A DNA stretch of 64,000 nucleotides from Acutalibacteraceae bacterium (GTDB lineage: Bacteria > Bacillota > Clostridia > Oscillospirales > Acutalibacteraceae). The translations under genes and the position numbers were made by a program. The notes beneath the pieces were generated by a model. That model saw only the letters and a program-made list of their open reading frames with translations, was not told where the DNA came from and searched no databases. The stretch lies in NCBI GenBank assembly GCA_045659065.1, contig JAZOWF010000064.1, positions 169-64,168 on the forward strand. Reading direction: 5' to 3'. Positions 51,427 to 53,403 of the stretch are shown here, one piece after another (position 1 is the first letter of the stretch; each line of letters opens with the position of its first letter).

Positions 51427-52398
51427 TTAATTAAAAATCAGTTTATAGAGATACTGTATCAGATCCCATGTCATACCACCCGCAACATCAAGATAAACAA
51501 TAATTATCAGATATAAAATCAGACTTCCCTTGCTTATTGCGTTTCGGGATATATTGAGATAAAAGTTAAAGTGACCTCTTAAGTTATTGTCACGGCTCTG
51601 CTGCCACTGATATGTAACAGCATCATCTCCGTTAAAGCCGACAGGAAGAAAATTCGTGTAAAGCTCTTCCTCAAGCCTTCTTATTCTGTAACAAGCCAAA
51701 TCATTGATTTCATAATCATCTGCAATTGTTATTGTAACAACTGCCTTTTTCAGCTTCTGTCTGTGAAAAGCACCGATGCTGTTGATTTCCTTGGGCAGAA
51801 GTCTGCCTTCATTGATTCTGACAGAATAGCCGTAGCTTTCAGACACAATCGGTGACATAAGAAGGTCACGGAGCTTGTTGGAAACATTACCTACCTTGTT
51901 ACGCTGCCTGAACACCTCTGTAATGGTTTTGTGCGGCAGACGGAACATAAAATACACTTCATTGTTGTCAAGGTATTTAAAAAGGTCTGCAAAAGATACC
52001 TTCATTAATGTTCCCTTTGCAACAGGCTCAACGGTATATTCAATTGCAGATATATGAACTATATCCATAATTTTTCCGTTATATGCAATTTCCGATGTTG
52101 CCTCATTCTTTTTATAATCAATCACACACATACTGCTGAAAATTGCTCTTGAAAGATTTTCGTCACAGAATTTAAGTGAAATATCTTCGATTTCATTTTT
52201 ACCGACTGCGAAAGGAAAATACATATTAAGAGCAGAGGATTCATTGACTCCCCTTATATGTACCGCAACATCCGTGTAGCTTTTTCCCTTCGGATTAAAC
52301 CAGTTGTTCAGATAAATTGTGCTGACGTCATCACCGTCAACCCACATTGCCCAACCGTCATCGGCAAAAAACTTGTTCTTTTTACTCAAAAAAATCAC
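51427..52398 (-). CDS. Hypothetical protein with single C-terminal TM helix
   Basis: 323 aa, no motif recognised. Stop is 12 nt before the sensor gene start. Start codon (GTG 52398 or TTG 52389) is uncertain. Confidence 0.55.
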   Translation of the reverse strand: MIFLSKKNKFFADDGWAMWVDGDDVSTIYLNNWFNPKGKSYTDVAVHIRGVNESSALNMYFPFAVGKNEIEDISLKFCDENLSRAIFSSMCVIDYKKNEATSEIAYNGKIMDIVHISAIEYTVEPVAKGTLMKVSFADLFKYLDNNEVYFMFRLPHKTITEVFRQRNKVGNVSNKLRDLLMSPIVSESYGYSVRINEGRLLPKEINSIGAFHRQKLKKAVVTITIADDYEINDLACYRIRRLEEELYTNFLPVGFNGDDAVTYQWQQSRDNNLRGHFNFYLNISRNAISKGSLILYLIIIVYLDVAGGMTWDLIQYLYKLIFN

Positions 52399-52419
52399 AT
52401 CCTGTTATCTGCTGTTGTT

Positions 52420-53403
52420 TTAAATTTCTCCGTGGTGACGGATTTGTCCTCTGACAAGCCTGCTGTCCTCACGGTGATAAGGTGCACTCCCTTCAAACTC
52501 TCTGTCGTCAATGCTTAAATCCGCTCTGATTGCGCTGTCATAAATGCTTCTGATGAAAGGAATTCTGATTTTTGTGAATCCGTTCAAAAACAAAGCATGA
52601 TACTGTACCTCGGCTGCAAAGCAGTTAAAAGAGGTATCCGCAGTGTGAGTGGCAAGAATTGCAAGCTTTTCAAAGCAATCCGGAGCCTTCGGGTCGTTGA
52701 TATAAATTTTGTCGTGATCACATACAACACGGCCTGCAGCCGCATTGTTTCGGTCTATAAAATCAGGAAGCCTTTTTTCTTTGCCGCCGGCAAGGCTTGC
52801 ACTGTAAATTTCTTCGTATTTCTGAGGGACAATTATAAATCCCTTGTGCGTAAAGGAAAGAATGTGTTTTACAAATAACTCTGCAATAAGATACGGAGCT
52901 TTGCTTTCAGTTTTGCAGAAATATTTTTTCACGGCAGAAGCATGTCTCTGTCCGCGCCGTGCAACAACACGGTTGATTTCTTCACTCATGGCCTTTCTGT
53001 TTTCATCAGTCGGCCCGTTGAGACAATTCAAAAGAGTGTTTATGTCATAGCCTATAAAGCTCACGGTAACTCCGGGAATATCGTAATCTGCACGTTCTCC
53101 CGCAAACATATCATATTCCTGTTCGCGAAGCTTAAAAAGGCTGTAAACGAAGCTGTTTTCTTCACCAATGGCATAGATATACCAGTCATCATAATAGTTA
53201 CTGCATTTAAGCTTATTCCCTTCAGCAGAAGGAAACGTAAAAATATCTTTTTCTTCCAGAAGAGCTGAAATGCTTTTATTAAGGCAGAAAAATCCGTCGT
53301 CGGTTTTTTCCAGATTGTTTTTTTCAATAACCCCGATTTTGATAAGCTGAGAAAAGCAATCGGGTATTAAATTTTCTGATTTTTTTGTTTCAAAATTATC
53401 CAT
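52420..53403 (-). CDS. Hypothetical cytoplasmic protein
   Basis: 327 aa, no motif recognised, weak RBS; 21 nt upstream of the next gene. Confidence 0.55.
   Translation of the reverse strand: MDNFETKKSENLIPDCFSQLIKIGVIEKNNLEKTDDGFFCLNKSISALLEEKDIFTFPSAEGNKLKCSNYYDDWYIYAIGEENSFVYSLFKLREQEYDMFAGERADYDIPGVTVSFIGYDINTLLNCLNGPTDENRKAMSEEINRVVARRGQRHASAVKKYFCKTESKAPYLIAELFVKHILSFTHKGFIIVPQKYEEIYSASLAGGKEKRLPDFIDRNNAAAGRVVCDHDKIYINDPKAPDCFEKLAILATHTADTSFNCFAAEVQYHALFLNGFTKIRIPFIRSIYDSAIRADLSIDDREFEGSAPYHREDSRLVRGQIRHHGEI

Follow-up and report, generated by a model that had tools for sequence, protein, structure and literature searches.

Gene content of the A/B locus

We analysed two adjoining genes, here denoted A and B, in a stretch of 64,000 nucleotides (nt) from an Acutalibacteraceae bacterium (contig JAZOWF010000064.1). 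The whole stretch is referred to as the window, and coordinates without a locus label are positions within it. A and B lie on the minus strand, as do the gene of a giant surface protein (adhesin), the genes of a two-component system and the operon headed by a partner-switching sensor. The order along this strand is the gene of the 1711-amino acid (aa) surface protein, A, B, the 944-aa sensor, STAS, HD_4 and STAS-APH (Table 1), and synteny shows that the two-component system beside the B/sensor locus is conserved in several genera. In what follows, numbers preceded by G, L and P denote genomes, loci and protein family members, respectively.

The open reading frame (ORF) of A, 327 codons on the minus strand and devoid of a hydrophobic segment, was confirmed as originally predicted. 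For B, the reading frame and the stop codon proved real, whereas the start had to be moved. The GTG at 52398 that opens the listed ORF lies only 1 nt after the AGGA of the ribosome-binding site, while TTG 52389 sits 10 nt after it. Homologues of B begin MSKKNKFF, and genomes that do not carry A have ATGAGTAAGAAA, with an ATG start at the very codon of the TTG. We therefore assign the start of B to TTG 52389, giving a protein of 320 rather than 323 aa, and the spacing between A and B becomes 30 nt instead of the 21 nt first reported. The 12 nt separating B from the sensor were correct and are made up of the sensor's AGGAGG site; a similar spacing of ~12–15 nt is present in the other loci of the genus and in L051 and L052. 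The junction AACAGGATGTGAT..TTG ahead of B is kept in every A-containing genome, and a scan for terminators detected no terminator-like site in either the A-B or the B-sensor gap.

Homologues of both proteins are abundant. Clustering at 90% identity yielded 1287 clusters for A and 5788 for B, mostly from gut metagenomes, some of them labelled as metagenome-assembled genomes of Acutalibacteraceae or Clostridia, and the window DNA itself was detected in bovine gut metagenomes. Median ratios of nonsynonymous to synonymous substitution (dN/dS) among genus orthologues were 0.12 for A, 0.09 for B and 0.09 for the sensor, and we conclude that A and B are real genes under purifying selection. The prediction that neither protein has a recognisable domain holds: searches of Pfam, NCBIfam, PHROGs and PADLOC returned zero matches at E ≤ 1, and family profiles of A and B run against PDB sequences gave nothing useful (best E for A, 0.55). 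In particular, Pfam and NCBIfam place no STAS, HATPase_c_2 or PP2C/SpoIIE domain in A or B.

Table 1. Positions and properties of the features at the A/B locus of the window
Feature	Position	Strand	Size	Remarks
STAS-APH kinase fusion	46536..47726	-		Pfam/NCBIfam
HD_4, alarmone-hydrolase-like	47704..48273	-		Pfam/NCBIfam
STAS	48270..48566	-		Pfam/NCBIfam
Sensor	48580..51414	-	944 aa	5TMR-LYT + HAMP + SpoIIE-type PP2C phosphatase + HATPase_c_2 (RsbW-like kinase); Pfam
B-sensor spacer	51415..51426	-	12 nt	AGGAGG ribosome-binding site of the sensor
Gene B	51427..52389	-	320 aa	revised start TTG 52389 (ORF list: GTG 52398)
A-B spacer	52390..52419	-	30 nt	holds ribosome-binding site of B, AGGA 52403-52400; no terminator
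Gene A	52420..53403	-	327 aa	ORF; soluble
Stem-loop GGTCAGGCATAG..CTATGCCTGACC	53432..53457	-		directly after the adhesin gene, before A; conserved tail ATTGGTGCTTATTTAA to 53416
Secreted repeat protein (giant surface protein/adhesin)	53469..58604	-	1711 aa	Flg_new repeats
Direct-repeat operator TTTGTAAG-N3-TTTGTAAG with extended -10	58635..58670	-		promoter of the slot; module 58652-58670
Response regulator	58723..59502	-		Pfam
His_kinase-type sensor kinase	59499..61346	-		Pfam

B is inherited with the sensor of a partner-switching operon

To follow the inheritance of the two genes we used a sample of 37 species of the genus, in which an orthologous sensor was taken as one of at least 85% identity, and a wider sample of 400 other genomes of the class Clostridia, searched with the B-family profile. 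Within the genus, B is present in 9 of the 37 species and A in 6. The orthologous sensor occurs in exactly the nine B genomes, such that B accompanies the sensor in 9/9 genomes and is found in 0/28 genomes that lack it. The nine loci are syntenic, in the order histidine kinase (HK), response regulator (RR), adhesin, A, B, sensor, STAS, HD_4 and STAS_APH, with adhesin and A as the optional members: G016 has the adhesin and no A, and in G024 and G025 both are absent and B follows the response regulator directly.

The class sample yielded B in 12 of the 400 genomes, belonging to eight other genera. In ten of these twelve, B, HD_4, STAS and the sensor all lie within a single locus; in G107 a contig break leaves the sensor on a separate contig. 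All 11 class-sample genomes with a full-length sensor of at least 53% identity have B, and none of the seven with full-length or near-full-length sensor relatives at 44–51% identity does. The usual order in these distant genomes is a dCache/HAMP/GGDEF protein (523 aa), B, a RelA_SpoT-type small alarmone synthetase (SAS, 352 aa), HD_4, STAS, the sensor and a 208-aa protein of unknown family. The junctions are tight, as seen in L055, with gaps of 3 and 12 nt and an overlap of 7 nt, and the string apparently forms a single operon in which components of cyclic di-GMP (c-di-GMP), alarmone and partner-switch signalling come together. In L055 (2229-10768, from G265) and nine similar loci, genes encoding STAS and flavodoxin-like proteins precede the GGDEF-B-SAS-HD_4-STAS-sensor string. 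The window-type operon contains neither a GGDEF nor a SAS gene, and no counterpart of the distant SAS turned up when the whole assembly of the window, 85% complete, was searched. B is thus retained without SAS and GGDEF in operons of the window type, and without A and the adhesin in G024 and G025.

By same-strand adjacency together with phyletic pattern, B belongs to the partner-switching operon and A does not. We consider B to be a constant part of this operon, which belongs to gut Clostridia and has no sigma factor, and we put at about 0.6 the probability of the joint claim that B is an integral component of this operon acting at the membrane with the sensor, and that A is cargo whose function has no specific tie to partner switching. 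The original prediction had offered A and B together as a possible input or output module of the switch. This idea survives for B, which tracks the sensor both within the genus and across Clostridia, and fails for A, which is missing from three of the nine genus loci (G016, G024 and G025) and from all 12 distant B loci. Asked whether they always travel together and whether they do so with the PP2C sensor, the two genes part ways: they are not constant companions, and it is B alone that goes with the sensor. Correcting the first reading in this respect matters in practice, as A and B should not be studied as a pair.

A variable slot between a regulated promoter and B

The place of A had been described as an accessory-looking slot, rightly so, as the stretch from the response-regulator-controlled promoter to B varies among genomes. 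Behind the response-regulator gene stands a terminator, followed by the TTTGTAAG-N3-TTTGTAAG promoter ahead of the adhesin gene. The same repeat module lies directly 5' of B in G024, and G016 has a second copy between the adhesin terminator and B. It precedes A in L069, and in L051 and L052 it heads other strings of cargo (PrsW, a Pr6Pr-family membrane protein, GNAT and amidohydrolase) that run into B-sensor. The operator was located at 5980-5998 of L020, 9402-9420 of L018 and 4752-4770 of L069. Because the module precedes the adhesin, B, A or other cargo in different genomes, the ancestral unit appears, from these sequence comparisons, to have consisted of the response-regulator-controlled promoter, variable cargo, and B-sensor-STAS-HD_4 with the rest of the operon, A and the adhesin being cargo. 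The B/sensor operon probably belongs to the regulon of the neighbouring two-component system. Two further genes of the window, one of 224 aa (43934-44608) that matches the NCBIfam Pr6Pr membrane-protein family and one of 193 aa without assignment (45908-46489), recur as slot or nearby cargo in L051, L052, L058, L062 and L160.

The stem-loop between the adhesin gene and A is near base-for-base conserved in the five A-containing genomes compared, its stem being slightly degraded in the window. It folds at -16.2 kcal/mol (z = -3.6) and was not called by the terminator scan. Since its U-tract is poor, the hairpin is probably a leaky terminator or an element of RNA processing or stability. Scanning for promoters ahead of A returned nothing except a weak match overlapping the adhesin stop codon, hence A, B and the sensor would most simply be transcribed by read-through from the adhesin promoter. 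We looked for RNA runs holding the window region as a source of co-transcription data and found none. In G012 (L016 9776-10081), a 306-bp insert with several inverted repeats lies between A and B, and the A-type junction to B is kept after it; as a candidate repeat element the insert was rejected, being unique among all DNA compared.

A is a modular domain with a predicted new fold

The AlphaFold model of A (predicted local distance difference test score, pLDDT, 85.6; predicted TM-score, pTM, 0.87) has an N-terminal alpha/beta part followed by a helical part. Foldseek found no match for it in the PDB (best E = 2.4) or in BFVD (best E = 0.9), and set against these two collections the modelled structure of A is a new fold. 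All forms of A conserve D36-G-F, D106, S115-F-I, C127, N135, N220, E245, H253, E265, H269 and D295, a set that looks enzyme-like.

The contexts of A are diverse. In relatives, A occupies the B slot in the order response regulator, A, a 225-aa protein, a 78-aa protein, B and sensor (L069/70, L140, L151, L154 and L160). It also stands directly behind HK-RR without B (L105, L117 and L156), after zur/znuA/znuC (L071), and directly ahead of surface proteins of 2184 and 777 aa (L073-75). Among metagenome loci of A of at least 6 kb, ~33 of 46 have an FGGY/glycerol-kinase-like (GlpK) gene followed by A after a 3-nt gap, and B is present in only 4 of the 46. These FGGY-A pairs, as in L127 (5468-7972) and ~30 similar human-gut loci with a GC content of 0.58, often lie behind a response regulator, HATPase_c_5 and two ABC exporter genes. 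In the loci examined, stand-alone A genes have no recurring partner gene.

An A-like domain is also found at the C-terminal end of the secreted CBM96+Big_2 proteins P0394 and P0397, of which it makes up the last ~300 residues; P0397 has a signal peptide. P0397 and a neighbouring paralogue are 72% identical over residues 1–647 and have unrelated C-termini, a domain swap of the kind seen in polymorphic toxins, and P0394 shows the same architecture. The fused forms are trailed by small ORFs with an N-terminal transmembrane (TM) anchor. In L079 (8001-18883), paralogous secreted CBM96+Big_2 proteins carry unrelated C-terminal modules, A-like or RicinB/CHAT-like, with small N-terminal-TM ORFs between them, a layout that by analogy resembles a polymorphic toxin/effector locus. 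The domain serves in two ways, alone in the cytoplasm and as an exchangeable part of secreted proteins, and for this reason an enzymatic or effector role is probable. PF26918, considered as a family for the A-like domain, turned out to be an Ig domain (Ig_Eae) overlapping Big_2.

These contexts bear on whether A is more than random cargo. It may work together with the giant surface proteins or with the two-component regulon, acting as a cytoplasmic modifying enzyme, a chaperone, or an orphan copy of a secreted-effector or carbohydrate-active domain. Giant secreted proteins adjoin A in three different ways: A follows the 1711-aa protein in the window and a g777-like protein in L160, and it precedes the 2184-aa and 777-aa proteins in L073. 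In L069, L105, L117 and L073, HK-RR or the repeat-operator promoter immediately precedes A, its relatives are fused to secreted proteins, and acidic, His and Cys residues are prominent in its conserved set (D36, D106, C127, E245, H253, E265, H269 and D295). However, the commonest sampled context, after the FGGY gene, has no surface protein nearby, and a signal peptide is missing from the stand-alone forms. A also shares no sequence similarity with the adjacent giant proteins, and the idea that it is a broken-off piece of the adhesin or kin of its giant neighbours was dropped. We regard such a partnership as doubtful, if worth keeping in mind.

B is a predicted beta-rich protein with a C-terminal membrane anchor

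The single C-terminal TM helix first noted for B was confirmed. One hydrophobic segment is present, at residues 288–306 of 320 (KD19 maximum 1.96), and it is retained in 34/34 aligned members of the family. B carries no signal peptide, and its one TM helix falls within roughly the final 35 residues, the make-up of a tail-anchored protein. R and K residues lie on the N-terminal side of the segment and, because of these basic residues and the missing signal peptide, the bulk of the protein would face the cytoplasm.

The AlphaFold model, built on an alignment of 34 sequences with identities down to 19%, has a pLDDT of 88 and a pTM of 0.84 and shows mostly beta strands in two halves, then a helix at 287–319. 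The cytoplasmic part thus modelled apparently comprises ~285 residues, mostly beta, in two sandwich-like halves. Foldseek against the PDB placed ribophorin I first (8pn9_E and 6s7o_E; E = 5e-5, probability 1.0, ~340 columns), while superposition on B gave TM-scores of 0.28–0.31, a root-mean-square deviation of 16–19 A and 7–8% identity. The next matches, of low TM-score, were N-terminal beta sandwiches of Mu-homology and aminopeptidase-N proteins. In our reading, the model has a beta-sandwich architecture that ends in a C-terminal anchor, and none of the matches amounts to a real family assignment.

Seven polar residues, D40, D69, R150, N193, R196, R237 and E240, are invariant or near-invariant across the family, in operonic and solo members alike. 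Further conserved positions are W30, Y146, Y260 and W262, and Y293 in the TM region. The pattern of conserved polar residues suggests that B binds a ligand or a partner through a defined site. B is the founding member of a protein family undescribed in the libraries searched.

Divergent B relatives as solo passengers

The B family is small, with 234 clusters at 50% identity, many of them fragments. Its members are of two kinds. P0245 and members of the L051 type, 39–55% identical to B, are of the operon type, and a SAS gene follows P0245. More divergent members are found elsewhere. P0285 (26% identity) is part of a type I restriction-modification (R-M) operon with the order HsdM-HsdS-B-like-HsdR. 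This protein is recorded on eight contigs, and in the two that were examined (L173 2-4073 and L174) the genes are on the same strand with ~20-nt gaps. The relatives in L091 and L092 (31% and 26%) adjoin phage-type integrases, the latter also occurring with TubZ; P0252 (32%) follows HNH and Arc-like genes; P0356 (22%) is near a HATPase_c_3 gene; and P0274 (27%) adjoins TnpV and another SAS. An ORF after the B-like P0259 (L175 2794-3090 and L176 1517-1936, starting with MKYRLTFQLSQPLSLPFQYNK) seemed by eye to be like Cas6, a likeness to which Pfam and the PDB give no support.

Searches for a defence or mobile-element identity were negative. PADLOC, run on 34 diverse family members, produced a single match at chance level (E = 0.03), tblastn of B against phage and plasmid collections gave no matches, and none was obtained in IMG/VR with the profile and three divergent members. 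Family members thus occur in two settings, within a signalling operon and alone, as passengers at variable sites that resemble defence islands.

A model for B at the membrane, and rival explanations

The operon comprises a 5TMR-LYT/HAMP/PP2C/RsbW-like-kinase sensor, STAS and HD_4, joined in some genomes by the STAS-APH kinase and in others by a GGDEF cyclase plus a small alarmone synthetase. We propose that B is made from the sensor's mRNA, just ahead of the sensor, and that its conserved TM helix would set it beside the 5TMR-LYT bundle. In this place B may be an accessory subunit tethered to the membrane: a co-sensor or scaffold setting the balance of phosphatase and kinase, or else a membrane-proximal target of the switch or of its nucleotide products. 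Its cytoplasmic beta domain would bind a ligand or partner, thereby tuning the balance or receiving the output; within this model the co-sensor and effector roles are not separable. A would be soluble cargo inserted, along with the adhesin, into the slot that separates B from the response-regulator-controlled promoter, and is probably expressed in that regulon.

Several observations weigh against this proposal. The link between B and the sensor consists of gene neighbourhood and phyletic pattern, and the nine genomes of the genus may be one clade and hence not independent. In G185, B is intact but its locus (L057 3086-7357) is decayed, with a truncated GGDEF gene next to B and a DUF3089/copper-amine-oxidase-N-domain protein upstream; no sensor was found in this genome, and no SAS, HD_4 or STAS near B. 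The sensor relatives of 44–51% identity do without B, so B is not essential to this type of sensor. The distant operons place B next to SAS and not next to the sensor, as do L088 and L036 (short contigs in which the sensor is not visible), and the direct partner of B could therefore be SAS or HD_4. Divergent B-like proteins that stand alone in mobile or defence-like surroundings look more like autonomous effectors than like subunits dedicated to the sensor. Moreover, we infer the transcription of A-B-sensor in the window, and the conserved hairpin stands upstream of A. Finally, A is repeatedly near two-component systems (in the window, L069, L105, L117 and L156), which makes a looser regulatory link possible.

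Part of this evidence would be accommodated if B were the output arm of the operon, a membrane-anchored receptor or effector for its nucleotides (c-di-GMP or (p)ppGpp-like alarmones) or for phospho-STAS that alters membrane function or arrests growth, with the family also acting as a stand-alone effector in defence islands. The position of B in the distant operons, between the GGDEF cyclase and the small alarmone synthetase/hydrolase (SAS/SAH) pair with gaps of 3–12 nt, favours such a role, as do the SAS genes following B-like genes in L088 and L036, the divergent genes between hsdS and hsdR, beside integrases and next to HNH/Arc-like and HATPase_c_3 genes, and the polar residues common to operonic and solo members. 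On the other hand, GGDEF and SAS are missing from the window-type operon and SAS from its incomplete assembly, and the PADLOC, phage, plasmid and IMG/VR searches came back empty but for the chance-level match. A single TM helix is by itself no sign of pore formation, and the solo relatives, just 22–32% identical to B, may differ in function. We hold this explanation to be unlikely. More speculative, and improbable in our estimate, is the broader proposal that the B proteins form a new class of signal receivers or effectors tethered to the membrane, which bind a nucleotide second messenger or a phosphoprotein and serve both in the partner-switch/alarmone operon and as stand-alone passengers of defence islands, with A, separately, representing a new enzyme or effector fold of cytoplasmic and polymorphic secreted proteins.

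The second idea of the original prediction, an inserted two-gene defence or abortive-infection cassette beside the signalling operon, here taken to include toxin-antitoxin pairs, has in its favour the tight spacing on one strand, the pairing of a soluble with a membrane protein, the A-like domain at the variable C-termini of secreted proteins and, as a partial point for a role in defence, the B-like genes between hsdS and hsdR and beside integrases, but it is very improbable, as B occurs without A in distant genomes and part of the genus, most contexts of A have no B, B tracks the sensor and not A, PADLOC is empty for both proteins, no mobile-element genes were seen in the region around them, and the dip in GC content is small (0.36 at 53000-53499).

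Comparison with known systems

We return to the reading of B as a component of the sensor operon, for which parallels exist among accessory membrane proteins encoded beside sensor kinases, namely LiaF with LiaS, YycH/YycI with WalK and SaeP/SaeQ with SaeS. Like B, these are small membrane-anchored proteins that adjoin, and are co-inherited with, a membrane sensor enzyme, and by this likeness B might be expected to tune the opposing activities of its sensor. The resemblance does not extend to sequence or fold: LiaF is polytopic and YycH/YycI face outward, whereas B is tail-anchored with its bulk predicted to be cytoplasmic. The partners differ as well, being histidine kinases in those systems and a fusion of PP2C and RsbW-like kinase in the case of B.

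In domain layout, B recalls ribophorin I/OST1 of the eukaryotic oligosaccharyltransferase, in which, too, one C-terminal TM helix comes after a beta-rich region. However, the beta domains of ribophorin I are luminal and lie behind a signal peptide, which B lacks, and B has no match to the Pfam family Ribophorin_I (PF04597). Judged from the models, the similarity appears to be one of shape and not family membership.

The parallels for A and for the solo B relatives lie elsewhere. Polymorphic secreted proteins and toxins have variable C-terminal domains, and secreted enzymes bearing carbohydrate-binding modules (CBMs) have catalytic modules; the A-like domain is comparable as a swappable module of the last ~300 residues. 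In contrast, A of the window stands alone, without a signal peptide or conserved partner gene, and matches no described toxin or carbohydrate-active enzyme (CAZyme) family in the libraries searched. PrrC is a passenger defence gene located between hsdS and hsdR in the prr locus, and the divergent B-like gene takes the same position, on the same strand and with ~20-nt gaps. It has no homology to PrrC or to PADLOC models, and B of the window sits in a signalling operon and not in an R-M locus. Remote relatives of B inside R-M operons nevertheless hint at a protein device shared by stress signalling and phage defence, and the confidently modelled new fold of A is represented by thousands of homologues in gut metagenomes of humans and cattle.

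The closest relatives of the operon as a whole are partner-switching modules that work without a sigma factor, such as SypE-SypA of Vibrio fischeri and the HenR module of Anabaena. The operon of B similarly combines PP2C, an RsbW-like kinase and STAS with no sigma factor. We know of no tail-anchored, beta-rich subunit named in the domain make-up of the SypE-SypA or HenR modules, and full-text literature searches retrieved no description of B or its operon, of a tail-anchored partner-switching component, or of 5TMR-LYT in partner switching. Sigma-less operons in which alarmone enzymes join a PP2C/kinase sensor are widely distributed among Clostridia of the gut and rumen, and a tail-anchored protein inherited with the sensor across genera provides a concrete third component through which what the switch senses and controls becomes experimentally approachable. 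Set beside the known modules, the operon is a variant of established partner-switching logic, to which B contributes a new part and A, as its neighbour, a new fold.

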